Made by a program: the position numbers and the translations under genes. The notes beneath the pieces were generated by a model. The model did not search any database. It was not told the DNA's origin and worked only from the letters and a program-made list of their open reading frames with translations. Shown here piece by piece: positions 2,545-58,872 of a DNA stretch of 64,000 bases. Position 1 is the first letter of the stretch; each line of letters begins with the position of its first letter. The stretch is from Escherichia phage vB_EcoM_MM02, in the sequence record MK373784.1; one strand, given 5' to 3'.

Positions 2545-3003
2545 TTATAGGAGTGTAGTGAGCACCTTATATAATGATTTGCCCATTACATATTCCCATT
2601 GAGAAGGTTTAATTAAAGCGAATGCATCAAATTCAGGAATCTGTCGTCCGTCCGGGAATGCATGATAGGAATTACAAACACTGTTTCTGAATTGCTCGTG
2701 CTCTACAGGGATGGTATATAGGAACAGATGAATATTCTTATTGTCTGAGTAATGATGTTCACCTAGGTCTTTCAGGAAGGCAGGGTCATATTGTGTAAAC
2801 CCAGTTTCTTCTTCGCATTCACGAATAGCGGCTTCAATAGGAGATTCGCCAGGTTCGACACGGCCTTTAGGAATATCCCACCGATGAGCTAATGCACCTT
2901 TAGGACGAGAACCAGTTACACGGCCCATGAATAACTCTTTATCTTTTGACATGAAGATAATACCGGCTGATAGCTCTTTCACTTTATTTTTCTTACTCAT
3001 CAT
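2545..3003 (-). CDS. nudE: Nudix hydrolase
   Basis: 152 aa; Nudix box GRVEPGESPIEAAIRECEEETG; position next to e as in T4 (e.1). Confidence 0.8.
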   Translation of the reverse strand: MMSKKNKVKELSAGIIFMSKDKELFMGRVTGSRPKGALAHRWDIPKGRVEPGESPIEAAIRECEEETGFTQYDPAFLKDLGEHHYSDNKNIHLFLYTIPVEHEQFRNSVCNSYHAFPDGRQIPEFDAFALIKPSQWEYVMGKSLYKVLTTLL

Positions 3004-3229
3004 CTCGGTCCCATGATTTGGCCATTAATTCGGACATAAATTCTTCAATACGCGTTTCTTTAGATGGACTTTCACTATTAGAGACCGCAAGTTTGTAATC
3101 TGCAATAGGACAGAACATATCAAGGTCCATATTAAAATCGTCTTTGATTTTTTCTTCTGACACATCTTTATCGTATGTGTACAGATAACTATCACATGAT
3201 TCTGATTTAATGTAAATTGCTATACTCAT
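2993..3229 (-). CDS. hypothetical protein
   Basis: ORF; start chosen at MSIAIYIK with SD AGGAA. Confidence 0.4.
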   Translation of the reverse strand: MSIAIYIKSESCDSYLYTYDKDVSEEKIKDDFNMDLDMFCPIADYKLAVSNSESPSKETRIEEFMSELMAKSWDRDDE

Positions 3230-3717
3230 CTCAAATTCCTGCATTCGGTAATAAAACGTTCAACTTCATTATTCTTGGCCTTTATCTTGTCTTTACGTTC
3301 CTGTAAACTACTTTTAACAAGATTAATAATGATGCCTACAGTACCGCCGCCAATGATGCCACCAACAACACTTATGATAATAGATGCTAATAAGATAGCA
3401 ATAATATCAACAAAACCGAAAGAACTCACCTTAGTACTAAAAAACCATACCGACGGTACAAATATAATCCATCCTGTTATCCATTGGCACTTATTGAAAA
3501 ACTTTTCAAGCTCAGCTTGAGTTGTTCGTATTACTTCATCGATAGGTTGATATCCATTAATGTATCTGTTCACGATAATACCTGCTGGCTGGTCGATTTT
3601 AAATTCTTGGCAAATATGTTTCACTAAGTAGGATGGACATCCTGTCCAATCTACTGAATAGTATGAAATACCTTCGTTGCCATCGTCTATATTAGACCAA
3701 TATGTTTTGTTAATCAT
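3226..3717 (-). CDS. membrane protein, C-terminal FITECR motif
   Basis: 163 aa; Gly-rich TM segments (VVGGIIGGGTVGIIINL); C-terminal ...ERFITECRNLR. Confidence 0.5.
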   Translation of the reverse strand: MINKTYWSNIDDGNEGISYYSVDWTGCPSYLVKHICQEFKIDQPAGIIVNRYINGYQPIDEVIRTTQAELEKFFNKCQWITGWIIFVPSVWFFSTKVSSFGFVDIIAILLASIIISVVGGIIGGGTVGIIINLVKSSLQERKDKIKAKNNEVERFITECRNLR

Positions 3718-4403
3718 TACCAGCCTTCCATAGGGAATTCCAGATAAACTTGAGCATTGACACGAATTTCATTGGTAATCTTTTTAACTCGGTCTGTATT
3801 ACGAGATACACGTCCGAACCAACGCCATCCGTTACTAATTGCACGAGAACCAGTGTGCCATGTTTGCCAATCAAACTGAAGAAGAGTACGATCTGGAGCT
3901 TCCCATTTCTCTAGTTCACCTTTTTCAATTTTTTCGAGGACTTCTTTGTGCCACTGGCGATAGATAAGTTCGCCATCAGGAATCTGACTGAACTCTGCAG
4001 TTCCTGTTGCAAAATGAGTAGGACACACGTCAGCGTTAACAAGACCAAGAATATGTTCAGAATGGTAACGAGGGTTGTCATAGTCAGGTTGTCCTGCAGT
4101 AATAAAGTGTTGACCAACTGGAATATCAGGGCGAGGAACATCGTCATGGTGGTATCCAGGAATAGCAGGATACCAACCAGGCATCAGCATATGAACCCGA
4201 GAATCAAATACAACATGTTGATTAGTCCAATCAATTGGGAGATTGGCAATAAAGCTACGAGTGATTGAGCCACCATTATCCCAAGCAAAACCCAAATCAC
4301 AATTAAAGAACATTGGTTCATTTTTGATTCGGTCATTTTGTACGTTATGTGCAAAACTACCAACTGCACGAGCTTGACTATTAAAAGTTTTAGAACTATT
4401 CAT
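3717..4403 (-). CDS. hypothetical protein
   Basis: 228 aa ORF with SD GAGGAAAA; His/Asp-rich stretch HHDDVPRPD; function not assigned. Confidence 0.5.
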   Translation of the reverse strand: MNSSKTFNSQARAVGSFAHNVQNDRIKNEPMFFNCDLGFAWDNGGSITRSFIANLPIDWTNQHVVFDSRVHMLMPGWYPAIPGYHHDDVPRPDIPVGQHFITAGQPDYDNPRYHSEHILGLVNADVCPTHFATGTAEFSQIPDGELIYRQWHKEVLEKIEKGELEKWEAPDRTLLQFDWQTWHTGSRAISNGWRWFGRVSRNTDRVKKITNEIRVNAQVYLEFPMEGW

Positions 4404-4404
4404 A

Positions 4405-4710
4405 TTATTTTCCTCGACATTCTTTAATGAAATTTTCTAGATTGGTAGATTCAATAGCTTTTTTACGAGCTTCTGCATGTTCTTCTTCAGACAATTTACA
4501 TTTATAATTAACCCAGACATTATGGTCGAAACTAGTCGTGGCATATAATAACAATGCTCCAACGAATAGCAAAAACGGCGATAAGAATACAAAACCAGGA
4601 ACACCATCCATACTGTAAGCCTTTTGTAATACTGCAACAGAAAGAGCTGCGTAAAAAAGTGATACAAATATTGTTAAAAGACCAATTCGGTTGGTTTCGC
4701 CTAATTTCAT
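4405..4710 (-). CDS. small membrane protein, C-terminal FIKECR motif
   Basis: 101 aa; two hydrophobic segments; C-terminal ...LENFIKECRGK. Confidence 0.5.
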   Translation of the reverse strand: MKLGETNRIGLLTIFVSLFYAALSVAVLQKAYSMDGVPGFVFLSPFLLFVGALLLYATTSFDHNVWVNYKCKLSEEEHAEARKKAIESTNLENFIKECRGK

Positions 4711-4768
4711 AATATTCTCCTCATGTTTTAATAGGACTACTATAACATAGTCCTATCAGTTTGTACAC

Positions 4769-4969
4769 TTATTTTGACATTTCTTCGATGTCACGACGAT
4801 ACCCATCACGAACTTCACGAAGAGCTTCAAGGCCACACATAGGCTCGATACCAGTAATGTGAACTTGATTAATCTGATACTCTACATCTTCTAACTGAGC
4901 GAAAACATAACGACGTTCTGCTGCACAACCAGGTTTAGCTTTACCGAAACGTTTATTCAAAGTAGTCAT
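4769..4969 (-). CDS. hypothetical protein
   Basis: Start chosen at MTTLNKRFGK with SD GGAGAT; early-type promoter upstream. Confidence 0.4.
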   Translation of the reverse strand: MTTLNKRFGKAKPGCAAERRYVFAQLEDVEYQINQVHITGIEPMCGLEALREVRDGYRRDIEEMSK

Positions 4970-5007
4970 TTTTATATCTCCATTCACTCATTTGTTTTGA
5001 TAGGTCT

Positions 5008-5037
5008 ATAGTATCAACAACTACAGACCTTGTAAAC
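5008..5037 (-). promoter_or_regulatory. early-type promoter GTTTAC-N18-TACTAT
   Basis: Minus strand GTTTACAAGGTCTGTAGTTGTTGATACTAT; near-palindrome AGGTCTATAGT/ACTACAGACCT overlaps the -10. Confidence 0.45.
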
Positions 5038-5049
5038 TGTTTTGCGAAA

Positions 5050-6006
5050 TTATTTGAAAGGTTTTACCATATGGAAATTTTGTTTGAAACGTTTGACGTA
5101 ATCGTCGTGTCCTAAGCTTTGGTACATACTTACTACTTTGCTATAATTTTCCCAAGCGAACTCACGGAACCATCCTGATGTGATTGATGTACAGACCTTT
5201 TCAAGGGCCATCATAAAACTATCACGTGGATGGATTTTAAAGTCGTTAGGAATCTGTGAACGTTCAAGAGCTAATACACAAGCTTCTTCATATACACCGG
5301 CTAATTTAACCATTTCTGGGAATGATTCGAACTTCTCGCGCGATGTCATAACTTCTGAGCCTTCTTTCATATAAAACTTATAAGCAGGCTGGTCAGTTAG
5401 TGCAATGGCTTCATGGATAGTATCATGGTCATACGTATAGATGTCATCTTTAAAGAACGCACTTTTAGAAGTGTCAAGAACTGGGTGAGCATAATTCAAG
5501 GTTTCTTTCTGGCGTTTCAGCATAATTTCAGTAAGTTCATCGTTCAGTGTAACACCTTTACCACGAAGATACTGAATATGGTTCATAGTCTTTAAAAAGA
5601 ATGGATTATTTTTCTTGAAACGATGAGACATCTTAATTGCAAGACATATCTCAGGAGTTGCCCAGTAAAACCCGTTCAAACGGTCTTTAGTCAAATTTTT
5701 CTTGGCGTATTTTAAAAGGTCATAAGAAGACGTGAAATCTTCAGGAGTGAGTTCACCGACTAGTTCGCGAACGTTAGTGATAGCCGGAACGATGTATGCT
5801 TCAAAATGAGTTTCGCGTCCATTATGGAAGCATTTGAAAACTTGGACATCAGGGTTATCTTGGTGAACATATACACCCATCATTTGATTTTTGAATGCAT
5901 TCCAAGAACCTTGGTCCGCAATAAAGTCCCAATCACTATTTTTAATAGCGCTAGAATCAATAAGACCGTGATAGTGAAGTGCACGAGAACCAATAACTAA
6001 CATCAT
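5050..6006 (-). CDS. hypothetical protein, possible pol-beta-type nucleotidyltransferase fold
   Basis: 318 aa; N-terminal IGSRALHYHG...(17 aa)...DWDF resembles the GS...DxD nucleotidyltransferase signature; weak. Confidence 0.45.
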   Translation of the reverse strand: MMLVIGSRALHYHGLIDSSAIKNSDWDFIADQGSWNAFKNQMMGVYVHQDNPDVQVFKCFHNGRETHFEAYIVPAITNVRELVGELTPEDFTSSYDLLKYAKKNLTKDRLNGFYWATPEICLAIKMSHRFKKNNPFFLKTMNHIQYLRGKGVTLNDELTEIMLKRQKETLNYAHPVLDTSKSAFFKDDIYTYDHDTIHEAIALTDQPAYKFYMKEGSEVMTSREKFESFPEMVKLAGVYEEACVLALERSQIPNDFKIHPRDSFMMALEKVCTSITSGWFREFAWENYSKVVSMYQSLGHDDYVKRFKQNFHMVKPFK

Positions 6007-6034
6007 AATATTTTCCTCGGATTAATTCATTAAC

Positions 6035-6286
6035 TTAAATTTCACGACATGCGATATTATATTCATCCCAGAGGTCATCATGTGAAGCCTCTACCAATGG
6101 AACGATTGTACCGTTTATGTCTTCATTATAAGGGCAAATTGTACAGTGCGCATCTTCGAATCGGATGCCTTTGTGTTCAGATTTTTTATAACGCATATCG
6201 AATATCTTTGCAAACTTTTCACGAGTAATGGTTTTACCAACCACTTTGGTTCCTATACTTTCGTAATAAATCATTGTGGACTCCAT
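6035..6286 (-). CDS. hypothetical protein
   Basis: 83 aa ORF; HCTICPYNED Cys/His pair; C-terminus ...NIACREI. Confidence 0.4.
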   Translation of the reverse strand: MESTMIYYESIGTKVVGKTITREKFAKIFDMRYKKSEHKGIRFEDAHCTICPYNEDINGTIVPLVEASHDDLWDEYNIACREI

Positions 6287-6302
6287 TTGTTTTGATAGGA
6301 CT

Positions 6303-6332
6303 ACTATAACATAGCCCTATCTTGTTGTAAAC
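6303..6332 (-). promoter_or_regulatory. early-type promoter GTTTAC-N18-TGtTATAGT
   Basis: Minus strand GTTTACAACAAGATAGGGCTATGTTATAGT; imperfect palindrome ATAGGACTA-N8-TAGCCCTAT overlaps the -10. Confidence 0.45.
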
Positions 6333-6336
6333 TGTT

Positions 6337-6534
6337 TTAGCAAGAATAACTAGATGATACCCAGCCTTGAACAGTGATACTATTGTGGGATAATGAGATC
6401 GCGTCCTGGAGATTCAGACCTGCGTTATCTTCAATCCATAATGTAACTTCTTCGCGTTCTTCTGTTGCAATTTGGAACAGGTTTTCCAGAGCAGCTACTG
6501 CCGTACGTACAGCACAATCTAATTCACGAGACAT
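6337..6534 (-). CDS. small protein, GWVxSSxxC C-terminal family
   Basis: 65 aa; C-terminus ...QGWVSSSYSC-stop. Confidence 0.45.
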   Translation of the reverse strand: MSRELDCAVRTAVAALENLFQIATEEREEVTLWIEDNAGLNLQDAISLSHNSITVQGWVSSSYSC

Positions 6535-6543
6535 ATTGTTTCC

Positions 6544-6816
6544 TTAGCAAGTGTGAGAAGATGCGACCCAACCACCGGTTTCGAGGCTCAGGTTGTAGTC
6601 GTATTGGTAAACGTCAGCCCATTCAGCATAGCCGTTTTTTGTACAACGTTCAAGATCGGCTTTAAGATGTCCGGGTGAATGATAGGTTCCACCCATACCA
6701 TAAGCTGGGTACAAGTTGAACGTTGTGTTTTGTTTATCAGCAATTTCTTTGGCAGCCTCAATAGCTGCATAGATTTTTGCTACAGCTTCAGCCAGTTCGG
6801 TTTGTTCTTTAGACAT
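6544..6816 (-). CDS. small protein, GWVxSSxxC C-terminal family
   Basis: 90 aa; N-terminal helix similar to next gene; C-terminus ...GGWVASSHTC-stop. Confidence 0.5.
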   Translation of the reverse strand: MSKEQTELAEAVAKIYAAIEAAKEIADKQNTTFNLYPAYGMGGTYHSPGHLKADLERCTKNGYAEWADVYQYDYNLSLETGGWVASSHTC

Positions 6817-6825
6817 AATGATTCC

Positions 6826-7131
6826 TTAGCACAACGCAGAAGACGAAACCCAAGCACCTTCAGTAATAACGTAACCATTACCTTCACGCTTAACATCGCC
6901 ACCATTATTTTCAATTTCATCTTTCATCCACTGGGATACGATTTCACCCTTAGGATAATAAGTACGACCGCTACCATAATCACCTACAGAAAATGATACG
7001 GCATATTGGTCTGCGATCTTTGTTGCTTCTTCTTCGATACGTTCAGCTTGATTCAGAAGTTTATAAATTGCATCTGAAGCGGATTTGGCATCATTAAACT
7101 CTGGTACTTTAATTTCAATAATCTTACTCAT
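6826..7131 (-). CDS. small protein, GWVxSSxxC C-terminal family
   Basis: 101 aa; C-terminus ...GAWVSSSALC-stop; stop overlaps SD of next gene. Confidence 0.5.
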   Translation of the reverse strand: MSKIIEIKVPEFNDAKSASDAIYKLLNQAERIEEEATKIADQYAVSFSVGDYGSGRTYYPKGEIVSQWMKDEIENNGGDVKREGNGYVITEGAWVSSSALC

Positions 7132-7487
7132 TTTCTACATTCCTTAATAAAGTTTTCGATTGTTTCATTTTCACGTCTAGCTAGGAGTTCATTATAACTA
7201 ATCATTTGAGAAGCGTAAACCTTTTTATTTTTCTTGTTGTGGTTTATAAAATCGTAGTAAAAATAGACTATAGTACAAAATGATGCGATGGATGCAAAGG
7301 CTTGGGTATACCGTAAGTCCTGCCATTGGTCTGTGAATCCACCAGTGTTCCCTATAAATCCTAACACAACGCCGTCAATAAGAAATCCAACTAATCCAAA
7401 GGCAAATCCCATGCCAATACTCATAATAAAAATTAGAATGTTCTCACCAAGAGAAGGCCATACGGTTAAGAGTTGAGGCTTTTGCAT
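7128..7487 (-). CDS. membrane protein, C-terminal FIKECR motif
   Basis: 119 aa; hydrophobic segments; C-terminal ...ENFIKECRK. Confidence 0.5.
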   Translation of the reverse strand: MQKPQLLTVWPSLGENILIFIMSIGMGFAFGLVGFLIDGVVLGFIGNTGGFTDQWQDLRYTQAFASIASFCTIVYFYYDFINHNKKNKKVYASQMISYNELLARRENETIENFIKECRK

Positions 7488-7891
7488 CTTATTTCCTTAA
7501 CGAATTCCATAGCTTCTTCATATTCATACTTTTTAACAGCTTCATCATACTGAGCTTGGGCTTTTGCGCACTGAACTCTCCATTCTCTTAATCGGGCTCT
7601 GTGATGACGGCCTTGGTGCCAATATCCTACCCAATTAATAGGCATTAATAAAAACGGTACAATAAGTGGTGCGACGAACATTAATGAAAATGCTGCATCA
7701 GACGATATAACTTCACTAGAATCTAAAACAGCTCCTATAATCATAAAGATTAAAAATGCTAAAGCTAAAATAGGGCCAAATAGTACTTCATTTGGGATTA
7801 ATTTACGCTTGTATTCATACGCCCAGGGCTTACTTGGCATGTATAGGGTTGGCTTTGACATATTCTCTACATTCCATAATAAATTGCTCAA
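7466..7891 (-). CDS. membrane protein
   Basis: 141 aa ORF (start uncertain, overlaps upstream gene); two hydrophobic segments; C-terminal ...EFVKEIRCKSLNS. Confidence 0.45.
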   Translation of the reverse strand: MSNLLWNVENMSKPTLYMPSKPWAYEYKRKLIPNEVLFGPILALAFLIFMIIGAVLDSSEVISSDAAFSLMFVAPLIVPFLLMPINWVGYWHQGRHHRARLREWRVQCAKAQAQYDEAVKKYEYEEAMEFVKEIRCKSLNS

Positions 7892-8432
7892 GGATTAAAT
7901 TGTTAGTGAAATTAGGACTAACAACCATAGTTTCATAAAGCGCATCAATAGCACTTAAAGCATCAACTCTTTTAAGCAAAGGCTTGCCTTCATACATAGT
8001 TTCAGAATCGATGATTAACGTAAAGTAATATTTTTTATTATCGACTAGAACTTCTGTATCGATATAAAACATATTAGACCTCAGAAGCTTATCTCTAAAA
8101 CCATAATAATCTTCAGAGCGTTCGCTGATATATTCCCATTCAGTGTTTAAACAACAAACAGACCATGTAGGAGCAACGAAATCAGTGAATCTAATATCAT
8201 GGTCTGCAACTAGTTTAGCAATAGCTCCGATATCATGAATCATAATACCTGGGGCTAATAAAGATTTTCTGCTATGGCTAGCCGTTTTCTCGGTGGTCTC
8301 ATAAGAAGACGACCAGTACCATTTACGTCCGGTTGCAACATATCGTAATGAATCAACTAAAGACGTAGGTGGATTTACCTTATCTCGGAACTCTTCGAAC
8401 ATTGAGTCAATATCATTATTTTGGTTTCGCAT
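7830..8432 (-). CDS. hypothetical protein
   Basis: Start chosen at MRNQNND with SD AAGGAG; C-terminal region ...EQFIMECREY... Confidence 0.5.
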   Translation of the reverse strand: MRNQNNDIDSMFEEFRDKVNPPTSLVDSLRYVATGRKWYWSSSYETTEKTASHSRKSLLAPGIMIHDIGAIAKLVADHDIRFTDFVAPTWSVCCLNTEWEYISERSEDYYGFRDKLLRSNMFYIDTEVLVDNKKYYFTLIIDSETMYEGKPLLKRVDALSAIDALYETMVVSPNFTNNLILEQFIMECREYVKANPIHAK

Positions 8433-8450
8433 GTTAACTCCTTTATTATC

Positions 8451-8473
8451 CAAAAGGAGGACCGGAGTCCTCC
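8451..8473 (-). terminator. intrinsic terminator-like hairpin
   Basis: GGAGGAC-CGGA-GTCCTCC 7-bp stem followed by T-run on minus strand. Confidence 0.45.
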
Positions 8474-8481
8474 GTATTATT

Positions 8482-9090
8482 TTATTTCAAAGAGTTAATA
8501 TATTCTTGTACATCAGCAGAAGTGGTTTCGACGCCGGCTGGAGTGCCATTGAACGTTTCAACACGAGTCAGAGTGTCTTCGATATCAACCTTAGTCAGTG
8601 CAGCTATTTCAATTACATCATCGGCCGTAGAGATACCAAGGGCATTGGCTGCTCGAGTTTCACGAATGTATTCGAGTTTGATTGCCAGGTTCTGACGAGC
8701 ATCGTCAAGTTCAACCACCTTACGAGCAATTTCAATTCGCATAGCGGCGTACCCGTCAGCTTTTGTATTAAGTTGTTCGGCAGTTCGACGATACAGAAGA
8801 CCAAGCTTAGCATGCATAGTAACATCTTGTCCTTCAGCCAGGAGCTTACGAATTTCACGTTCCTTAGAAGCGGCTTGCTTGTTCTTTTCATTAACAAGTT
8901 CGCGAATACGTTTTTCTTCATTAATAGATTTAACAGAAGCCGTTTTTAGTTCTTTGATTTGGGTAATCAACTTATCTGCAGCTGCGTTATACTGTTCTTC
9001 GACAGTCAGATTTTTAGCCATAGCAGTATCCAGTTTAGTGCGAATGAATTCAACAAGTTTCTTCAGTGTGTTCATATTATTACCTTTCAA
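8482..9090 (-). CDS. coiled-coil protein, unknown function
   Basis: 202 aa; heptad-like charged/hydrophobic periodicity throughout. Confidence 0.45.
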
Positions 9091-9145
9091 TTGGTGGTTT
9101 ATTATCCAACGAGAGCATTATACTCTGCTCTCAAGAGTTTGTAAA

Positions 9146-9373
9146 TTATTTTTTAATCAAATTGACATAAAACTTGGCGTCTTCGGGGTGCATGCCTTCG
9201 CAGTATTCTTCAACCATGAACTTCTTAACAGCTTCATAAGGACCACTCAGATTAAGCTCAGTTGTCCAGAACTTGGAATCTTGGACTGAATCGATACGAA
9301 CTTCAGGGTGGCGGTTGCGAATAACTTCTTCTGTGTATTCATAATCAACGACATCAATACTAACTTTAGCCAT
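9146..9373 (-). CDS. hypothetical protein
   Basis: 75 aa ORF; SD AAGAGGAAAA; early-type promoter upstream. Confidence 0.45.
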   Translation of the reverse strand: MAKVSIDVVDYEYTEEVIRNRHPEVRIDSVQDSKFWTTELNLSGPYEAVKKFMVEEYCEGMHPEDAKFYVNLIKK

Positions 9374-9400
9374 TTTGTTTTCCTCTTGATTTGATAGGAC

Positions 9401-9430
9401 TACTATAACATAAACTTACTTAGATGTAAA
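9401..9430 (-). promoter_or_regulatory. early-type promoter ATTTAC-N18-TGtTATAGT
   Basis: Minus strand ATTTACATCTAAGTAAGTTTATGTTATAGT followed by family-2 leader. Confidence 0.4.
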
Positions 9431-9584
9431 TTATTTCAACGTCACCTTTAGCTGCTTTATAACCTTCAGCCCAAGATACAACAGAGTTTTTATCCGAGGA
9501 TTCAAATTCAGGCATTGGACTTTCACCAATATTCACACAGTATGTTTCTTCATTTTCATCGAACCAAATAATTAAAGTAGTCAT
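9420..9584 (-). CDS. hypothetical small protein
   Basis: Start chosen at MTTLIIWFDE with SD GAGGAG; leader is a 42-bp exact copy of the leader at 45880-45921. Confidence 0.4.
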   Translation of the reverse strand: MTTLIIWFDENEETYCVNIGESPMPEFESSDKNSVVSWAEGYKAAKGDVEIIYI

Positions 9585-9643
9585 TTTGTTTACTCCTCTG
9601 TAGTTGATAAGTCTATAGTACCACCATCCTTGGCGTTTGTACA

Positions 9644-10147
9644 TCATTTATTTTTAATTTTGCAAATTTTTTCTGCTTCAGCAATTGCAGCGTCAATGAT
9701 GCTTTGTGCAATTTTATTACTAGTTGACCTGGCAATCACACTAAGAACAATTTCTTTTTCTTCACCACCCCAACCCCAAGTCCTTTGTTCGTGGGTACCT
9801 TTAACTACAGCTGAAACTTCAACAGAACGTCCACCATCAGAAGTTTTAACATCTACAACCCAATCACCATCTTTCTCTTCTACCCTTGATTTATCCCAAG
9901 AAATACTAATATATGATTCGCCGTCAATAGAAGTCGCCGGGTTTTTCTCTACCGTAAGACCTTCACTTTCCAGCCATTCAATAGTATTTGCGCATAAATC
10001 AGAAGAACACCTCATCGGAAACCGGCAAGATTTTTCACCTTTAGATGCTGCATCGTACATCTTTTCCAAAATACGCTTTTGCACGTTTTTAAAAATAGTT
10101 TCAGCAGATTCTTCAGATTTTTTATTCAGTTCAGTGTAAAGACTCAT
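9644..10147 (-). CDS. hypothetical protein
   Basis: 167 aa ORF; SD GAGGAAAA; promoter upstream at 10176-10204. Confidence 0.5.
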   Translation of the reverse strand: MSLYTELNKKSEESAETIFKNVQKRILEKMYDAASKGEKSCRFPMRCSSDLCANTIEWLESEGLTVEKNPATSIDGESYISISWDKSRVEEKDGDWVVDVKTSDGGRSVEVSAVVKGTHEQRTWGWGGEEKEIVLSVIARSTSNKIAQSIIDAAIAEAEKICKIKNK

Positions 10148-10175
10148 AACATTTTCCTCTATGGTTGATAAGTCT

Positions 10176-10204
10176 ATAGTATCATGTCCTTAGAAGAAGT
10201 AAAC
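10176..10204 (-). promoter_or_regulatory. early-type promoter GTTTAC-N17-TACTAT
   Basis: Minus strand GTTTACTTCTTCTAAGGACATGATACTAT followed by family-1 leader. Confidence 0.45.
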
Positions 10205-10235
10205 ATCTTTATGAAATATTTTTATGCCCTAGATA

Positions 10236-10264
10236 CCAAAAGGCCCCAACCATAAGGAAGGGGC
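10236..10264 (-). terminator. intrinsic terminator
   Basis: Interrupted stem GCCCC..CC / GG..GGGGC followed by T-run on minus strand, just downstream of the 10271-10735 gene. Confidence 0.5.
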
Positions 10265-10270
10265 ATTCTA

Positions 10271-10735
10271 TTATTTAATTTGTTTAGCAGACCAGATACG
10301 GTCTTTAATAAGTTTTTGGATATCTTCAACATACTCAAGGCTATGAGCGTGAGGATTATCTTTGAAGCTATGTGCTCGTGCCAGTTTCTGGCCTTCTGTT
10401 TTGATTACTAAAAGCTCTTTAAGAATTGCTTCATACTTAGAAATAATTCCTTTGGCGATATTTTTTTCTTGAGCTGCTTTAGGGTCTGTTTTTGGCGCAG
10501 GTGCTTTACCTGTAGCTTTCTGGAACAATTCACCTGATGCAGCTAGGCTTTTAAAAACTCGGCTAACAGTATTAGCATTAGTAAAACCTTCGGCTTTAAA
10601 ATCTCTAATAAAACGGAAACGTTCTTCATCAGAGGCGTCTTTGTAAGAATATTTACCTGCTTGAATTGCTGCAATCGCAGCGGCTTTTACATCTGAACTA
10701 GATTGTTCAGTCAAAAATTCAGCGTATGATTTCAT
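10271..10735 (-). CDS. internal protein-like, capsid targeting sequence
   Basis: 154 aa; N-terminus MKSYAEFLTE fits the CTS pattern; SD AGGAAAAG. Confidence 0.55.
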   Translation of the reverse strand: MKSYAEFLTEQSSSDVKAAAIAAIQAGKYSYKDASDEERFRFIRDFKAEGFTNANTVSRVFKSLAASGELFQKATGKAPAPKTDPKAAQEKNIAKGIISKYEAILKELLVIKTEGQKLARAHSFKDNPHAHSLEYVEDIQKLIKDRIWSAKQIK

Positions 10736-10775
10736 GTTGCTTTTCCTAAGTTAATTAACTTATCTATTTATTATG

Positions 10776-10804
10776 CCAAAAAGCCCCGACCTTTCGGAAG
10801 GGGC
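10776..10804 (-). terminator. intrinsic terminator
   Basis: Stem AGCCCC..CC-GAAA-GG..GGGGCT followed by TTTTT on minus strand. Confidence 0.5.
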
Positions 10805-10809
10805 TAAGC

Positions 10810-11116
10810 CTTGCGGCAACCTTGTCGGGGTTCCACCTGCTAAGGCAAGTGTTTGTACGAAACGCCGGGATTCGAACCCGGTTATTAAGCAGTTGACGCT
10901 ACTCAATATTTTTAAAAGGCCATATCTCGACCATATCCGAACGTTCCGTCAAAAACGCTACTCGGCTTACGGCAAAGATATTTCCTCGAATCGATAATTC
11001 GGTGCGCCGTTTCTGCTGTGATGTAAGGGGATATTAACAAATCGTAAAGATTTATTAAGACCAGTCCTTACTCAGGGAACATCAGTCCGACGACTTGCCG
11101 GTAGCGACCCGGCTTC
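10810..11116 (-). ncRNA. non-coding region with tRNA-like T-arm; possible small stable RNA or degenerate tRNA
   Basis: Minus strand contains CCGGGTTCGAATCCCGG (canonical T-arm) but I could not fold a complete cloverleaf by hand; no plausible ORF. Confidence 0.3.
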
Positions 11117-11461
11117 TTATTTTGGCATATCATCAATTTGCTCTCGACGCCGACGCCATAGATTAATCGCTTCATTAACACATTCAGCATTTGGTATATG
11201 ACGACAATAGTATAGTGATTCGCGTTTCTGGAACCGATGTTGTAATGGAATTTCGTTTAAAAGGTCTTTACGGTCAAAGTATTCAAAACTAGTTAACCCT
11301 GAACGGTTTTTAAGAAACTTCCAATGGCCAAATTCATTTTGGAAATAAACGTAATCAGCGTGTTGATATAACGAATTAATCAACCGGTCGGAAATAACTG
11401 TTTCACGTTCGTTAAAATAAAACGTTAAGTCATGAACTACCAGATAAATATTGCCTTTCAT
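11117..11461 (-). CDS. hypothetical protein between tRNA and small-RNA region
   Basis: Start chosen at MKGNIYLVV with SD GAGGAAAA; the longer ORF start would overlap tRNA-Arg. Confidence 0.45.
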   Translation of the reverse strand: MKGNIYLVVHDLTFYFNERETVISDRLINSLYQHADYVYFQNEFGHWKFLKNRSGLTSFEYFDRKDLLNEIPLQHRFQKRESLYYCRHIPNAECVNEAINLWRRRREQIDDMPK

Positions 11462-11479
11462 ATTTTCCTCACTTAAAGT

Positions 11480-11556
<77 letters not shown>

Positions 11557-11559
11557 GAT

Positions 11560-11634
11560 TGGTGACCCTGGCTGGTTTCGATCCAGCTACCTATCAGTTA
11601 TGAGCTGACAGCTCTCCCATTGAGCTACAGGGCC
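11560..11634 (-). tRNA. tRNA with CAT anticodon (Met or Ile-lysidine type)
   Basis: Hand-folded 75-nt cloverleaf: acceptor GGCCCTG/CAGGGTC, anticodon loop CTCATAA, T-arm GCTGG-ATCGAAA-CCAGC, encoded CCA. Confidence 0.65.
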
Positions 11635-11713
11635 TAAATAACTTTCTATTATGAAAGGCACTTTAGAGCACCTTTGGTAATAGAGGGTATGAATTAATAA
11701 TAACACATAATTC

Positions 11714-12229
11714 TTAAAGCAAATCAATCATTTTAACAGTCGGCAAAACGATTTCTTCTTCAATATAAGCAAATTCAACACATTCAACTACACGCAAGAA
11801 ATCATAATCATAATATTCAGAAGCATGGCCAAGAATATCAATGAGACCTTCTGATACTAAATATCCATTCTCATGGAACAGGTCGAATACACGCGATTCG
11901 TCTTCTTCAGATTTATTACCGAGGTCGACTTCAATATCAAAGACCTTTTTAATGAATTCTGGATAAAGCTGGTCTGAGAACAGTCCTTCAACCAAGTATT
12001 CATAGATTAAAAGCGAACAATCACTGAATAGTGTATTACCACAGTAACGTTCAGCTTTAGTGCTGGAATGACGGCTCTTAAATTTCTTTAAGAGATATTT
12101 AAACTGTTGGAGCTCATGCTCTTCTACACCAAATAATGTTTTGGTTTTATAGTTGTCGCCGTCATTTTCCCAAGTAGTGACATCAATTACGTAACCCTTA
12201 GGAATTGTACTGCCTAAACAAATATTCAT
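11714..12229 (-). CDS. hypothetical protein
   Basis: 171 aa ORF. Confidence 0.45.
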   Translation of the reverse strand: MNICLGSTIPKGYVIDVTTWENDGDNYKTKTLFGVEEHELQQFKYLLKKFKSRHSSTKAERYCGNTLFSDCSLLIYEYLVEGLFSDQLYPEFIKKVFDIEVDLGNKSEEDESRVFDLFHENGYLVSEGLIDILGHASEYYDYDFLRVVECVEFAYIEEEIVLPTVKMIDLL

Positions 12230-12233
12230 TTAC

Positions 12234-12524
12234 TCACCGTACCATATTAATGTAATTATATTCAATGCAACGTAATTTCAAAGGATTCTTGAAAATATCA
12301 TATTCAAGAGGGCCTTTTTCTGTTTCAATAAAGAAATCAAAGTTAACTGTGTTAAATTTATCGTCTTCACAGAGTAATTTAACTTGCGAAGATGAACGGT
12401 CGATATAAACCTTTTCAACCTCAAAGTTAGTCAGAATACCGTAGTCATCAACTAGTGCTTTAGCTGCACGTTGATCGCTTTCATATCCATTCTCAATGGA
12501 CGATACTTTAGCATAAAGAATCAT
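12234..12524 (-). CDS. hypothetical protein
   Basis: 96 aa ORF tightly packed with neighbours. Confidence 0.4.
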   Translation of the reverse strand: MILYAKVSSIENGYESDQRAAKALVDDYGILTNFEVEKVYIDRSSSQVKLLCEDDKFNTVNFDFFIETEKGPLEYDIFKNPLKLRCIEYNYINMVR

Positions 12525-12883
12525 GAATGTTCCACCATTTCAAAGGTATGAGCATCAACAATATGATACCAGTCAAAATTTTCTTCTGCGTTTTTATAAA
12601 TTTCGCGAAGAGCCTCAACAGTTTTTCCTGTAGCAACAAGGTCGTCAATACCACCAAGAGGATAACAGTCATAACCAGCAAACAGAAGGAAATTAATAGT
12701 TTCTGTAGGTTCTGGATGCAGTGTACCGTTGTCATCGACTACTTCAAAGAACATATAACCAGGCGATTTAGATTTAATCCAAGCCCATGCTTGAGCTGCT
12801 GAATCAAATGGTCTGCGTATCAAACGACAATCATGGTCTTTAGAAGGATTTGCTTCAAAATCCGCATATACGTGATATTTCAT
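12521..12883 (-). CDS. hypothetical protein
   Basis: Start chosen at MKYHVYADF with SD AAAGGTGAG. Confidence 0.4.
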   Translation of the reverse strand: MKYHVYADFEANPSKDHDCRLIRRPFDSAAQAWAWIKSKSPGYMFFEVVDDNGTLHPEPTETINFLLFAGYDCYPLGGIDDLVATGKTVEALREIYKNAEENFDWYHIVDAHTFEMVEHS

Positions 12884-12884
12884 T

Positions 12885-13091
12885 TTACTCACCTTTTGCA
12901 ATTTTATCCATAACAATAGCGATTAAACCGATTAGAAATGCTACTACCAATGAGATAGAATTTTCAGTTGTTGTCAGTAGTCCGCAAATGAATCCTACAA
13001 ACATCGAAAAACTAAAAGCCATTGAAGCAATTACTACAGCAACATTACGAATCAGTTCAGCGCGTTTCATTTTATTTCTCCATTTACTCAT
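12885..13091 (-). CDS. small membrane protein
   Basis: 68 aa, two hydrophobic segments. Confidence 0.4.
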   Translation of the reverse strand: MSKWRNKMKRAELIRNVAVVIASMAFSFSMFVGFICGLLTTTENSISLVVAFLIGLIAIVMDKIAKGE

Positions 13092-13107
13092 TTGTTTTGA
13101 TAGGACT

Positions 13108-13137
13108 ACTATAACATAGTCCTACCAAGATGTAAAC
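13108..13137 (-). promoter_or_regulatory. early-type promoter GTTTAC-N18-TGtTATAGT
   Basis: Minus strand GTTTACATCTTGGTAGGACTATGTTATAGT; palindrome ATAGGACTA-N8-TAGTCCTAc overlaps the -10. Confidence 0.45.
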
Positions 13138-13140
13138 TAC

Positions 13141-13428
13141 TTACAGAAGAGTTTTTGCAATAATTTTAAGCTGAGCTACAGAAATATGCTTAGCTTTAAA
13201 CAGTGCAGTCTCTTCGGCCGGAGAGATAACAATAGTAGCGCCGTCTTTCTTAGCAGACCATCCATCCCCTAAGTAAACAGTACCTTTTACTTCTTCGCCG
13301 TCAACCAGACTAATCATTGGTTTACCCTCACGTCCTTTATTTGCTTTAATAACTTCGGAAGTAAGGGTTGCTTCGGTCAGAGTAGAAACGTTAGCAACAG
13401 GTGATATAAATTCTTTATAGGTTTTCAT
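13141..13428 (-). CDS. ipI: internal protein I-like, capsid-targeted
   Basis: 95 aa (same length as T4 IPI); N-terminus MKTYKEFISP; sits next to 57B as in T4. Confidence 0.6.
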   Translation of the reverse strand: MKTYKEFISPVANVSTLTEATLTSEVIKANKGREGKPMISLVDGEEVKGTVYLGDGWSAKKDGATIVISPAEETALFKAKHISVAQLKIIAKTLL

Positions 13429-13462
13429 TTTATTTCCTTGAGGTTGTTTATTTGATAGGATG

Positions 13463-13492
13463 ATAGTAACACACCATCATCCTTATGTAAAC
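13463..13492 (-). promoter_or_regulatory. early-type promoter GTTTAC-N18-TACTAT
   Basis: Minus strand GTTTACATAAGGATGATGGTGTGTTACTAT; palindrome AGGATGAT-N11-ATCATCCT overlaps it. Confidence 0.45.
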
Positions 13493-13505
13493 TGTTTTGT
13501 GAAAA

Positions 13506-14191
<686 letters not shown>

Positions 14192-14195
14192 TTTA

Positions 14196-14930
14196 TTACC
14201 TTAAGATTGTTTCAATTTTAGAATAAAGCTCTTCTAAAGAGCCGTCGTTTGTAATAACTAAATCGCCTTCTTCAATAGGCAACCCAGCTTCTGTAATATG
14301 TTTATCGGTGGATTCCGTACCAGAGCGAACCACATGAATAACTGTAGCACCCATCGCTCTAGCGGTTTCCATTTCATGGACTTGGCGTGTATCGGTTACA
14401 ACATAGTAATCGAAATCACTTCCAATATAATCCATATAGTTTAATGCAAAAAGTTTAACCCAATACATACGGTCAAATAAATTAACGACAACATCCGTAC
14501 CGAGGGCTTGCATAAGACGGCGGACTGACCATGTGTCGTTGATATTATTTATAGCTTCACGCAGGGCTTCATATGGTTTAATATCTAGATACGAATATCC
14601 ACCTTCTAACGATGATAATACTTTAACATTATTAATCGGTAAATAATGACTTTGCAAATAAATTAGCGCTTCTTCCAATAATTCAATAACATCCAACTTA
14701 TTGAGATTTAATGGTGTTTCACGGTCGTATCCAATGCCTTCAAAGTATTCGTATTTCAACTCGGTGAATACATCAGGGTTTTCAGCATGTTTACGACCCC
14801 ATGCGATTGCCAATGCATCTTTAATTGGATATGCTAATTGATATTTTACAGATTTAAAGTTTGAATTGATATAATCAGCAGTAGTATCTTTGCCACTACG
14901 TTTGATGCCACTTAAAAAGATTAGCTCCAT
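14196..14930 (-). CDS. 1: deoxynucleoside monophosphate kinase
   Basis: MELIFLSGIKRSGKDTTADYI... closely matches T4 gp1 as recalled; P-loop GIKRSGKDT. Confidence 0.9.
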   Translation of the reverse strand: MELIFLSGIKRSGKDTTADYINSNFKSVKYQLAYPIKDALAIAWGRKHAENPDVFTELKYEYFEGIGYDRETPLNLNKLDVIELLEEALIYLQSHYLPINNVKVLSSLEGGYSYLDIKPYEALREAINNINDTWSVRRLMQALGTDVVVNLFDRMYWVKLFALNYMDYIGSDFDYYVVTDTRQVHEMETARAMGATVIHVVRSGTESTDKHITEAGLPIEEGDLVITNDGSLEELYSKIETILR

Positions 14931-25206: not shown

Positions 25207-26203
25207 TTCAAGTGTTATCTATCGTGCAATAGTTACATCAAAATTTAGAACAGAGAAAATGCTGAATTTTTATAATTCAGTTGGGGATGGAGATGATAAG
25301 AACTCCATTTATATTACGTTTGGACGTTCAGAGCCTTGGGCGTCAAATGAAAATGAGGTGGGCTTCGCCCCACCTTATCCTACAGATTCTGTTCTTGGTG
25401 TTACTGATATGTGGACCCATATGATGGGTACCGTTAAAGTTTTACCTTCAATGTTAGATTCTGTTATTCCTAGACGTGATTGGGGAGATGTGCGATATCC
25501 AGACCCTTACACGTTTAGAATTAACGATATAGTCGCATGTAATACTGCTCCGTACAACGCGACAGAAGTTGGAGCTGGTTGGTTAATTTACCGTTGTTTA
25601 GATGTCCCTGACGTAGGGCTCTGTTCAATAGAATCTTTAGATAATAAAGATGAATGTCTTAAATTGGGTGGTAAATGGACTCCGTCTGTTCGTTCTATGT
25701 CTCCTCCTGAAGGCAGAGGCGATGCTAATGGGGTTATCGAAACCGGTGATGGATATATTTGGGAATATCTTTATGAGATTCCTGCTGATGTGTCAATTAA
25801 CCGTTGCACTAACGAATATCTTGTAGTTCCATGGCCGGAAGAAATTAAAGAAGACCCCACCCGTTGGGGATATGAAAATAACTTAACTTGGCAACAAGAT
25901 GACTACGGTTTGATTTACCGTGTTAAAGCTAATACGATGCGGTTTAAAGCATATTTTGATTCTGTTTATTTCCCTGAGGCAGCTTTGCCTGGTAACAAGG
26001 GTTTTAGACAGATATCAATTATCGCAAACCCGTTAGAAGCTAAGAAAAATCCAAATGACCCTAATATTAAAGCAGAAAAGGATTATTACGACCCTAGAGA
26101 CCTGCAACGTCATTCCGGTGAAATGATTTATATGGAAAACCGACCACCTGTTATTATGGCAATGGACCAAACAGAAGAAATTAACATTTTGTTTATGTTT
26201 TAA
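25199..26203 (+). CDS. 8: baseplate wedge protein gp8
   Basis: 334 aa, same as T4 gp8; synteny. Confidence 0.9.
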   Translation: MNDSSVIYRAIVTSKFRTEKMLNFYNSVGDGDDKNSIYITFGRSEPWASNENEVGFAPPYPTDSVLGVTDMWTHMMGTVKVLPSMLDSVIPRRDWGDVRYPDPYTFRINDIVACNTAPYNATEVGAGWLIYRCLDVPDVGLCSIESLDNKDECLKLGGKWTPSVRSMSPPEGRGDANGVIETGDGYIWEYLYEIPADVSINRCTNEYLVVPWPEEIKEDPTRWGYENNLTWQQDDYGLIYRVKANTMRFKAYFDSVYFPEAALPGNKGFRQISIIANPLEAKKNPNDPNIKAEKDYYDPRDLQRHSGEMIYMENRPPVIMAMDQTEEINILFMF

Positions 26204-26206
26204 TTA

Positions 26207-26231
26207 GGGAGCCTTCGGGCTCCCATTTTTG
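26207..26231 (+). terminator. intrinsic terminator after gene 8
   Basis: GGGAGCC-TTCG-GGCTCCC 7-bp stem, UUCG loop, then ATTTTTG. Confidence 0.7.
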
Positions 26232-26235
26232 TATC

Positions 26236-26243
26236 TATAAATA
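26236..26243 (+). promoter_or_regulatory. late promoter TATAAATA
   Basis: Exact TATAAATA 33 nt upstream of gene 9 start. Confidence 0.6.
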
Positions 26244-45563: not shown

Positions 45564-45587
45564 TCTTAATTGATTAAATCTTATTTT

Positions 45588-45615
45588 GGGAGACTTCGGT
45601 CTCCCATTTTTGGTT
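45588..45615 (+). terminator. intrinsic terminator after gene 23
   Basis: GGGAGAC-TTCG-GTCTCCC followed by ATTTTTGGTTTT. Confidence 0.75.
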
Positions 45616-45885
45616 TTATTTCTGTGCAATTTCGATGTAAGTTTTCAAAATATTTTGCCAATTAGGCATACCTTCTTGGACATATGCCGGAGAACCGTCT
45701 TTGTTTTTGAATGATGCAAGTTTATCAGTGGCCCAATAGCCTTTAGCTCGAGCTTCAGAATCAATTTTCATCCATACTTTGTTGAAGGCATTACCATTAA
45801 CTTTTGCACCATATTTTTCTACTAACTTAACTGCTTCAGCTTCCAGAACTTTTAAAGTATCTCGTAAGAAACGTGCTTTAGTCAT
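45616..45885 (-). CDS. hypothetical protein between genes 23 and 24
   Basis: 89 aa ORF with SD GAGGAG and early-type promoter; occupies the position where T4 has segD. Confidence 0.5.
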   Translation of the reverse strand: MTKARFLRDTLKVLEAEAVKLVEKYGAKVNGNAFNKVWMKIDSEARAKGYWATDKLASFKNKDGSPAYVQEGMPNWQNILKTYIEIAQK

Positions 45886-45915
45886 TTTGTTTACTCCTCT
45901 GTAGTTGATAAGTCT

Positions 45916-45945
45916 ATAGTATCACATACCAAATACGTTGTAAAC
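45916..45945 (-). promoter_or_regulatory. early-type promoter GTTTAC-N18-TGaTACTAT
   Basis: Minus strand GTTTACAACGTATTTGGTATGTGATACTAT followed by family-1 leader. Confidence 0.5.
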
Positions 45946-45951
45946 AATCTT

Positions 45952-45959
45952 TATAAATA
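45952..45959 (+). promoter_or_regulatory. late promoter TATAAATA
   Basis: Exact TATAAATA 28 nt upstream of gene 24 start. Confidence 0.55.
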
Positions 45960-45986
45960 ATCTATATCACATAAGGAAAAAATGCA

Positions 45987-57048: not shown

Positions 57049-58872
57049 AACCTGAAGAAATGAAATCCATGCGTAGAAATAAGGTCATTGCCGATAATAA
57101 ACCACAAAAAGTAGCTGCAACAGCAGCTACCGATTCATTAGAAGCATTGAATGACATTTCATCAAAACTAGACGATGTCCAAGCCGCGTCTGAACTCACA
57201 TCACAAAGTGTAGAAGATAAAGGCAATGGAATCATTGAATCAATTGGAGACTTAAAGAATTCGACAGATAATACAAGGCAATGGAATCATTGAATCAATT
57301 GGAGACTTAAAGAATTCGACAGATAATACTGCTGAAGGCACAGAGCTTATCGCAGAAGTTATTGAAAAACAAACTGAAGTCACTAAAAGTATAAACGAAG
57401 TTTCTAGTGCAATAAGCTCTAAGTTAGACCGATTAGCTACATTATTAGAGCAAAAATTACAAACATCTACCGCTATTCAAAATACAGGAGGCACCTCTCT
57501 TGAAGTAATTGAGAACGCAATACCTGTTAAAGTGGTTGAGAATGAAACTTCTGATGAGTTGTTTAAAGCATTCCCTACACCTGAAAAGATTGATAATAAG
57601 CCAGACGAAGATTTCTTCCCAGCACCGGTTCAAGAAAGTGCTAATTCTACTTCCGATTCTAAAGGCGGAATTAGCTTTAAATTGAGCGATAAAATTGCAA
57701 TGCTCACCAAAACAGTTCAAACCGGGTTTAATAAATCAATATCAATTTCAGACAGAATTGCTGGAATGCTTTTCAAATACACTATAACGGCTGCTATTGA
57801 AGCAGCAAAAATGGCCGCACTTATTCTTGGTATTGTTATCGGTATTGATTTATTGATAGTCCATTTCAAATATTGGACAGACAAGTTCACTTCTGCCTGG
57901 GATTTATTTGATGAAAACTTTACTAAATTCTCTGACGAAGCTAAAGAGTGGGGTAAATTCTTAAGTGATATATTCACTTCTATTGACTCTATAAAACAAT
58001 TGTGGGAAGCTGGAGACTGGGGTGGTTTAACCGTTGCTATTGTCAAAGGTGTAGGAACAGCATTAATGAATTTAGGTGAACTAATTCAATTAGGAATGGC
58101 TAAACTCTCCGCGTCTATATTGCGTGCTATAGGTTTTGGTGATACCGCTGACGAAATAGAAGGACGTGCTTTGGAAGGATTCCAAGAAACTACTGGGAAC
58201 AAATTAAAGAAAGAAGACCAAGAGAAAGTCGCTAAATATCAAATGAAGCGTGACGATGGGGAATTAGGAACCGTTTCTAAAGGCCTTGATATGTTACAAC
58301 GTGGCAAAACATTCGTTACTAACTGGGTTCGTGGTAATGACAATAAAGAAGAGTTTAGTACAAGCGATGAGCGTGCTGCGGAATCAGCAAAATTAAAAGA
58401 GTTACCTGAAGAGGAGCGTAAAGAGGCGTATATAAAAGCTAATGAAACTCGTGCGGCACTGGTTAGATTTGAGGATTATATCGATAAAATCGATATGACT
58501 AATCCAGAAAATGCTAAAAACGTCGAGAAGTCTTATGCTGATTTAAGTAAACTTATTAAAGACCCTGAACTTAATAAAACTCCTGTTGTTAAAAAGGAAT
58601 TAGATGCTAGATTTGAAAAGCTAAATAATAAAATGGCTGAAGCCAAAAAGGCTCAGACCACAGTTAAGCCTGAATCTTCGTCTAAATCTCCGGAAGCAAA
58701 ACAAGTTCAGTCAATAGAGAAAGGACGTGCTTCTGAATCTAAACAACAGCAACCGGTAGCGGCGATTAGTAACACAAATAATGTCGTCAAAAAGAATACC
58801 GTAGTCCAGAATATGACCCCTGTAACAAGTACAACGGCTCCTGGAATTTTCCATGCCACCGGTGTTAATTAA
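57045..58872 (+). pseudogene. 29: gene 29 (tail tape-measure / baseplate hub) interrupted by a frameshifting 55-bp tandem duplication
   Basis: Frame from 57045 stops at 57291-57293 inside the second repeat copy; the rest of the gene continues in the +1 frame to 58872; removing one copy gives a single 590-codon ORF, the T4 gp29 length. Confidence 0.8.
57221..57330 (+). repeat. perfect 55-bp direct tandem duplication (2 copies)
   Basis: AAGGCAATGGAATCATTGAATCAATTGGAGACTTAAAGAATTCGACAGATAATAC at 57221-57275 and again at 57276-57330. Confidence 0.95.

Follow-up and report, generated by a model that had tools for sequence, protein, structure and literature searches.

Two distant predicted early promoters of an RB69-like phage share an identical leader, a probable short-patch copy within a family of T-even promoter modules

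Early-promoter cassettes of T4-type phages

The closest described systems are the promoter-early stem-loop (PeSL) cassettes of T4-type phages (Arbiol, Comeau, Krisch et al. 2010, PMC2839356; Comeau et al. 2014, PMC4122927). In T4/PST the PeSL consensus is TTTACW-N17-TAYWAT, with a Shine-Dalgarno sequence (SD) and ATG at the 3' end, and degraded '1/2' PeSLs have also been described (PMC4122927). According to the PeSL authors, the commonest position of the hairpin overlaps the -10. Crossover points in PeSLs have been located to the interval from the -10 to the ATG or SD (PMC2839356), and PeSLs and modular shuffling are published for RB49/phi1, T4/PST and KVP40/nt-1 (PMC2839356, PMC4122927). Repeats of ~70 bp that flank T-even internal-protein genes (Repoila et al. 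1994, as summarised in PMC4122927) foreshadowed this shuffling. The RB69/Mosigvirus group lies outside the analysis of the PeSL papers (PMC2839356 contains zero mentions of RB69), and we found no literature that joins RB69 or Mosigvirus with PeSLs. Among the early promoters of RB69 predicted with an HMM are Pe:72567 (score 33.0) and Pe:109605 (score 29.9; Nolan et al. 2006, PMC1524935), the orthologues of the two promoters considered here, at locus 1 and locus 2 respectively.

We analysed 64,000 nt of Escherichia phage vB_EcoM_MM02 (MK373784.1; hereafter the window). The phage belongs to Mosigvirus, the RB69-like branch of T4-type phages, and is ~99.6% identical to moha, JK36 and APCEc01. Locus 1 is part of the variable early region that separates nudE/e.x from the tRNA genes; the gene order there is 167-aa ORF, 54-aa ORF (RB69ORF145c), frd.3. 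The promoters on either side of the 54-aa ORF are separated by 213 bp. Locus 2 is a lone minus-strand ORF, antisense between late genes 23 and 24. We predict that these are two resident early promoters, that one leader was copied onto the other as a short patch in a Mosigvirus ancestor, and that modules of the same family act as crossover points for small ORFs; taken as a whole, we regard this explanation as probable. The 54-aa and 89-aa ORFs belong to phage-only families, and Pfam gave nothing significant for either of them.

A repeat of -10, leader and start codon

The original prediction of a 42-bp exact repeat at two distant loci was borne out. The 42-mer occurs exactly twice in the window (9579-9620 and 45880-45921) and was matched in none of 100 dinucleotide-preserving shuffles; the true exact length is 43 nt, and with one mismatch allowed the repeat spans 47 nt (9578-9624 and 45879-45925). 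The copies lie 36 kb from each other in direct orientation. Their minus-strand sequence is TACTAT-AGACTT-ATCAACTACAGAGGAGTAAACAAA-ATG-ACT-A, which agrees with the proposed content of -10, leader, SD and first two codons. The leader shared by the two Mosigvirus loci is 24 nt long and carries ATCAACTACAGAGGAG, and the distance from GAGGAG to ATG is 8 nt at both. The coordinates given for the two downstream ORFs are correct, and the genes are indeed unrelated, with no BLASTP alignment between their proteins. Both promoters are on the minus strand directly 5' of their ORFs (Table 1).

Table 1. Features at the two repeat loci and at neighbouring modules of the window
Feature	Position	Strand	Remarks
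Locus-1 repeat copy	9578-9620	-	-10 TACTAT 9615-9620; predicted +1 A 9608; SD GAGGAG 9593-9598; ATG 9582-9584, then ACT A
Locus-1 promoter, upstream half	9621-9673	-	-35 TGTACA 9638-9643; 17-nt spacer; differs from locus 2
54-aa ORF	9420-9584	-	homologue of RB69ORF145c / PST ORF130; phrog_5461, family of unknown function
frd.3 promoter and leader	9374-9430	-	TTTACA-17-TATAGT; partner module in the G53/ATK47 deletion of the 54-aa ORF
Third, partial family member: promoter and leader of the 167-aa ORF	10148-10203	-	includes the 18-nt copy 10164-10181
Locus-2 repeat copy	45879-45921	-	-10 TACTAT 45916-45921; predicted +1 A 45909; SD GAGGAG 45894-45899; ATG 45883-45885
Locus-2 promoter, upstream half	45922-45974	-	-35 TTTACA 45939-45944; 17-nt spacer
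89-aa ORF	45616-45885	-	gap between late genes 23 and 24; phrog_6003, family of unknown function
Hairpin TGGGAGACTTCGGTCTCCCA	45587-45606	.	plus strand: gene 23 terminator; minus strand: end of the locus-2 cassette; z = -5.5
Late-promoter motif TATAAATA of gene 24	45952-45959	+	T4-type; within the AT-rich upstream region of the opposite-strand locus-2 early promoter

Among the exact repeats of the window the 43-nt pair ranks second in length, behind an unrelated 55-bp perfect tandem duplication at 57220-57329 within gene 29 (baseplate hub / tail-length determinator). This duplication breaks the frame (an 82-aa ORF stops at 57293; reading resumes at 57532 with an ORF of 446 aa). In each of the 12 best-matching relatives the 55-bp unit is present once (351 nt of query correspond to 296 nt), and the duplication is thus private to MK373784.1, as an assembly or sequencing artefact or as the mark of a defective genome. 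The sequence is therefore not flawless, and the 43-nt repeat might be suspected of being a duplication artefact as well. However, the 47-mer, which is confined to Mosigvirus, recurs in 141 independent records at 225 places, once or twice per genome and always in distinct flanks, and in many of these independently sequenced genomes both copies are present. We conclude that the repeat is not an assembly duplication, a possibility to which we give practically no credence.

No Mosigvirus genome among the 141 records has more than two copies of the 47-mer. An exact scan of IMG/VR with the 28-nt leader as query returned zero matches, and thus gave no example of the module preceding ORFs other than those at the two loci. 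Terminal inverted repeats and target-site duplications were not seen in the flanking sequence of both loci, and given these flanks, the limit of two copies per genome and the empty IMG/VR scan, the repeat does not look like a transposable or MITE-like element.

About 14 minus-strand promoters in the window have a common layout: TTTAC(A), N17, TACTAT/TATAGT/TATAAT, N6, ATCAA, a short A-rich leader, SD and ATG. Over the 30 nt that precede the -35, the A+T content is 87% at locus 1, where the TGA stop of the 167-aa ORF abuts the -35, and 83% at locus 2. A generic sigma-70 scan picks up locus 2 (TTTACA-17-TACTAT, 45944-45916) and misses locus 1 (TGTACA-17-TACTAT), which scores 8/12 matches to the sigma-70 consensus. 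The locus-1 -35, one deviation from TTTACW, is conserved in the Tequatrovirus orthologues. From the spacing and the conservation within the family, we infer that transcription starts at the A of ATCAAC at both loci. A candidate antisense promoter inside the repeat was rejected: the palindromic ACTATAGT makes the plus strand read TTTACT-N19-TATAGT, but a spacer of 19 nt exceeds the 16-18 range, and the scan left this candidate unreported.

The shorter copy announced at 10164-10181 is exact, and the match of this third module to locus 2 extends to 21 identical nt. It belongs to the promoter of the 167-aa ORF (9644-10147, minus strand), and the module as a whole is preceded by a terminator-like hairpin at ~10240-10262. 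The 167-aa ORF itself resembles a fusion of two families (residues 1-92, phrog_18312; residues 92-167, phrog_8232); the versions in RB69 (RB69ORF146c), O157tp3 and SA79RD have the N-terminal part only. Another likeness within the window involves the 66-aa ORF (start 4969, promoter at 5036) and the 54-aa ORF (start 9584), whose first 11 coding bases are common (ATGACTACTTT, MTTL) and which are also alike in part of the preceding region (repeat family D12).

The identity of the two leaders goes beyond the family consensus. When the -10 block and the 22 nt before the ATG were compared pairwise among the 14 promoters, the median identity was 51% and the next best pair reached 79%, with loci 1 and 2 identical. 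The longest exact run is 43 nt between these two, 31 nt in the next pair and 9 nt at the median. A full match by two independent draws from the column frequencies of the family has a probability of ~7e-17 (about 1e-16), by which shared consensus as the sole cause of the identity is rejected.

Lacking in the two copies is the stem-loop. For the segment from -35 to +8, z is -0.5 at locus 1 and -1.1 at locus 2, and the 66-77 nt upstream of each -35 contain no significant structure. In six other promoters of the window (-35 at 13491, 13136, 9145, 6331, 5036 and 4767, minus strand), the spacer and the -10-to-+1 segment form the two arms of a strong hairpin (z -3.4 to -6.8). The stem sequences are not the same (AGGATGAT/ATCATCCT, TAGGACTA/TAGTCCTA, AGGTCTgTAG/CTAtAGACCT, GAGAGC/GCTCTC), and pairing is thus kept via compensatory differences. 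As judged from sequence, the hairpin of these six promoters is the PeSL stem-loop overlapping the -10. The two repeat copies are, by the same test, promoter-leader modules without a stem-loop.

The leaders are also unstructured as RNA. Folding of 64 nt from the predicted start is no better than that of shuffled sequences (z = +0.7 and +0.9), which fits an open translation-initiation region. A functional RNA in the leader was rejected on the basis of this folding and of an Rfam search over the whole window, which found two tRNAs only and nothing at the repeat copies. The GGAG of both leaders is predicted to be unpaired, and its 3' context, UAAACAA, matches four of seven positions of the consensus for strong RegB sites, GG*AGRAYARAA (PMC3014915). 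This GGAG is a plausible candidate for RegB cleavage in early shut-off.

The two loci in related phages

In Tequatrovirus phages PST, G28, PhiZZ23, GRNsp7 and HZ_ZJUN4 the 54-aa ORF occurs behind the same -35 and spacer (TGTACAAACACCAAGGACGGTGT). In these five phages the -10 is TATTAT and the 30-nt leader is different (ATCAAAACAA..ACAGAAACGGAGAAATAA-ATG); the ancestral-type leader before this ORF can be written ATCAAAACAA...GGAGAAATAA. Thus, the Mosigvirus leader at locus 1 is derived. Its simplest source, and on the sequences compared the most likely one, is locus 2. The leader of JS10, the outgroup for locus 2, is also different, which leaves room for copying from locus 1 to locus 2 or from an unsampled third donor. 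The start of the copied patch falls somewhere from position -13 to the third base of the -10 hexamer, and its end is at ATGACTA.

The 54-aa ORF is absent from G53, ATK47 and at least six other isolates. G53 and ATK47 have a single hybrid promoter, in which the -35, spacer (TGTACAAACACCAAGGACGGTGT) and -10 of locus 1 are joined to the frd.3 leader. The same deletion junction is found as one unbroken match in NHEP29, phage 55, ATK48, SHSML-52-1, phiE142, PECP20 and LH01. The G53 hybrid includes 'TACTATAGACC', which is in neither present-day parent; its history thus involved more than one event, or patchy mismatch repair. In a comparison of PST with window positions 9075-9584, the 54-aa ORF has 90-92% nucleotide identity between Mosigvirus and Tequatrovirus and the adjacent e.6 has 79%. 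This hints at a more recent exchange of the 54-aa cassette between the genera, or at unusually strong constraint.

At locus 2 the upstream half of the promoter is kept in RB69, G53, JM17 and LF82-2 and partly in JS10 and T4. The original prediction had proposed to look in related phages for ORFs swapped behind the same module, and Mosigvirus LF82-2 provides such a case. Its locus 2 is that of the window up to ...CTACAGAGGAG, followed by the Dhakavirus (JS10) type, attaaaaATGAACAA..., with one crossover in the SD and the right-hand one in the shared terminator (the hairpin at 45587-45606). The product of the LF82-2 allele has 31% protein identity, and next to it is a SegD-like homing endonuclease that is 57% identical to T4 SegD. 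In T4, segD itself is in the gene 23-24 gap behind an early promoter, with only the upstream tatttataaag..TTTACA in common. The gap thus holds different cargo by lineage: T4 has segD, Mosigvirus, Dhakavirus and Gaprivervirus have a small ORF, and LF82-2 has both a small ORF and an endonuclease.

Two further features of this gap were noted. The gene 24 late-promoter motif, recognised with the consensus quoted in PMC1524935, and the early promoter share a block that is conserved in Mosigvirus, JS10 and T4, with everything downstream of the -35 variable. The terminator hairpins at 26189-26238 and 45570-45619 have 78% identity over 50 nt (GGGAGCCTTCGGGCTCCC and GGGAGACTTCGGTCTCCC; each loop is of the UUCG type) and are a second kind of repeated regulatory element, the locus-2 one being that used as crossover site in LF82-2.

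The identity of the leaders could also be due to co-regulation, with the leader serving as a specific operator (for RegB, RegA or another early translational regulator) that is held identical by purifying selection or continuing conversion. Many independent isolates keep the 47-mer unchanged at both loci, and the unpaired GGAG with its A-rich tract, a partial match to the RegB consensus, would suit such a role. However, GGAG SDs are common, being present in about half of the early leaders of the window, the Tequatrovirus 54-aa ORF works behind a quite different leader, and the 3' half of the leader is replaced in LF82-2. RB69 has three private leader substitutions at locus 2, where the ORF is frameshifted, and the window has a private A-to-G at locus 1. 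Such changes, private to each locus, show that the copies drift independently and that homogenisation is not ongoing. Mosigvirus genomes are 95-99% identical overall, so that an unchanged stretch of 43 nt needs no special selection. We consider co-regulation an unlikely cause of the identity.

We identified junctions at other modules of the family by BLAST alignment of window positions 3000-14500 with RB69, G53, ATK47, O157tp3 and SA79RD. Nine of the 15 alignment endpoints fall inside promoter-module footprints, which make up 8.5% of the region (binomial P = 7e-7). The segment 4769-5030, a 66-aa ORF cassette missing in RB69, extends between the promoters at 5036 and 4767. SA79RD carries an inserted additional ORF at the 9145 promoter, the promoters at 13136 and 13491 are insertion sites of internal-protein genes, and the limits of the frd.3 cassette relative to PST are two -35 hexamers. 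Not all junctions are at modules, since the breakpoint pair 9669/9887 falls within the 167-aa ORF. At the internal-protein locus (13065-13521), gene content varies among RB69, G53, ATK47 and O157tp3; additional ORFs of 87-108 aa, beginning MKTY(K/Q)EFI..., are inserted at the 13136 and 13491 modules, and the annotators of ATK47 record a 43-bp direct repeat flanking Ip7 and Ip9.

The earlier idea of a portable promoter-leader module that captures small ORFs is thus correct in one part and not in another. Modules of the family are the junctions at which ORFs are lost (G53/ATK47), swapped (LF82-2) and inserted (SA79RD, RB69 and the internal-protein locus). However, each of the two ORFs is behind its own resident promoter, with -35 and spacer orthologous across genera, and only the -10-to-ATG patch is shared. 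The same evidence bears on the possibility that promoter, leader and ORF form a discrete mobile cassette that was transposed to, or captured at, both sites. Mini-circles of PeSL plus ORF have been shown experimentally for RB49 and phi1 (PMC2839356), the higher similarity of the 54-aa ORF than of e.6 between genera is compatible with lateral exchange, and the cargo of the gene 23-24 gap differs by lineage. Yet the -35, the spacer and both ORFs past codon 2 are outside the shared segment, the upstream half at each locus is orthologous to that of the same locus in other genera, and the repeat is limited to two copies per genome, with no exact IMG/VR copy. A mobile cassette is, in our estimation, improbable.

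Proposed history and comparison with known systems

We return to the short-patch copy between resident promoters. The -35 and spacer differ between the loci and only the -10-to-ATG segment is common, which argues for a short-patch copy of one leader onto the other. There would be two separate sigma-70-type early promoters, of which the repeat copies are the downstream halves, from the -10 to the second codon. Host RNA polymerase would initiate at the predicted start right after infection, and the short, unstructured, A-rich leader with GAGGAG would allow efficient translation. In a Mosigvirus ancestor, ectopic recombination over a short patch (gene conversion) may then have overwritten one leader, most likely that of locus 1 by that of locus 2. 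The patch would have been delimited by stretches that were already homologous, the -10/start-site motif TAyTATAGACTTATCAA on one side and ATGACTA on the other. The perfect identity would accordingly be historical, not functional. Modules of the same family would serve as homologous linkers through which small ORF cassettes are deleted, inserted and replaced between related phages.

The genes between the two copies are annotated as baseplate, tail and head structural genes, and these are essential in T4. A crossover between the copies would delete 36 kb with these genes, and only patch transfer is therefore plausible for the pair. Thus, the suggestion that the copies are useful recombination substrates did not hold; the pair is better viewed as the footprint of a past event. 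The homology reported for T4 recombination is <50 bp (Singer 1982, as cited in PMC2839356), and 43-47 nt is at the low end of what is quoted.

A more general possibility is that PeSL-type modules undergo long-range, non-crossover patch conversion and not only local crossovers, with a leader of a gene within the capsid block having overwritten one 36 kb away, in a hyperplastic region. We hold this to be an evenly balanced proposition. If it is true, a translation start and putative RegB control were rewired without moving any gene. If it holds widely, concerted evolution would extend to the early regulatory cassettes throughout T4-type genomes, and leaders could be exchanged independently of promoter cores and ORFs.

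The kind of element, its role in shuffling and both RB69 promoters (as predictions) are already known, and no new element type or mechanism is revealed. The specific leader shared by the two loci appears to be previously undescribed, and the modestly novel part is the probable copying of a leader over a 36-kb range. The phages provide a clean, sequence-resolved RB69/Mosigvirus case for the PeSL model of gain, loss and swap of small accessory genes, including a hybrid-promoter deletion junction and an ORF swap with crossovers in SD and terminator, in addition to the probable long-range leader copy. For annotators and phage engineers, such repeats are genuine and mark recombination-prone joints, and the small ORFs behind them differ among Mosigvirus isolates that are therapeutic candidates.

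Several known systems are similar in part. The T-even internal-protein repeats reportedly contain an early promoter and an overlapping inverted repeat. The likeness is in early-promoter repeats around small early ORFs, with proposed shuffling, and the internal-protein locus of the window shows such insertions. Unlike those repeats, the pair studied here is outside the internal-protein locus, does not flank one cassette and lacks an inverted repeat. Nolan et al. (2006, PMC1524935) list the RB69 orthologues of both promoters, and what they write on repeats and recombination makes no mention of an identical leader or of recombination at the two promoters. Co-conversion by a segD-type homing endonuclease has points in common with locus 2, namely T4 segD at the same position, with its promoter anchored on the same upstream sequence, and the SegD homologue next to a foreign allele in LF82-2. 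However, the window has no endonuclease gene at locus 2; co-conversion could explain the LF82-2 swap, not the identity of loci 1 and 2. Locus 2 is like the morons of lambdoid phages (a gene that is inserted between two others and has a promoter and terminator of its own) in being a single ORF with promoter and terminal hairpin. Morons are inserted independently of conserved flanking regulatory sequences, according to the PeSL authors, whereas the junctions here are in the promoter-leader and the terminator.

The similarity to PeSLs is the most extensive. Both loci have an AT-rich region, a T-even sigma-70-like early promoter, an SD and an ATG; both are intergenic, beside variable small ORFs of unknown function, and the indel and replacement junctions of relatives are inside the cassette, between the -10 and the SD/ATG. 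They differ in that the two repeat copies are without a stem-loop, that locus 2 is in the capsid-gene block instead of a hyperplastic region, and that the pair points to a non-crossover patch copy over a 36-kb range, whereas the published exchanges are between neighbouring cassettes 1-4 kb apart. From their sequence features, the two are most aptly described as members of the T-even PeSL / early-promoter family that have no stem-loop.
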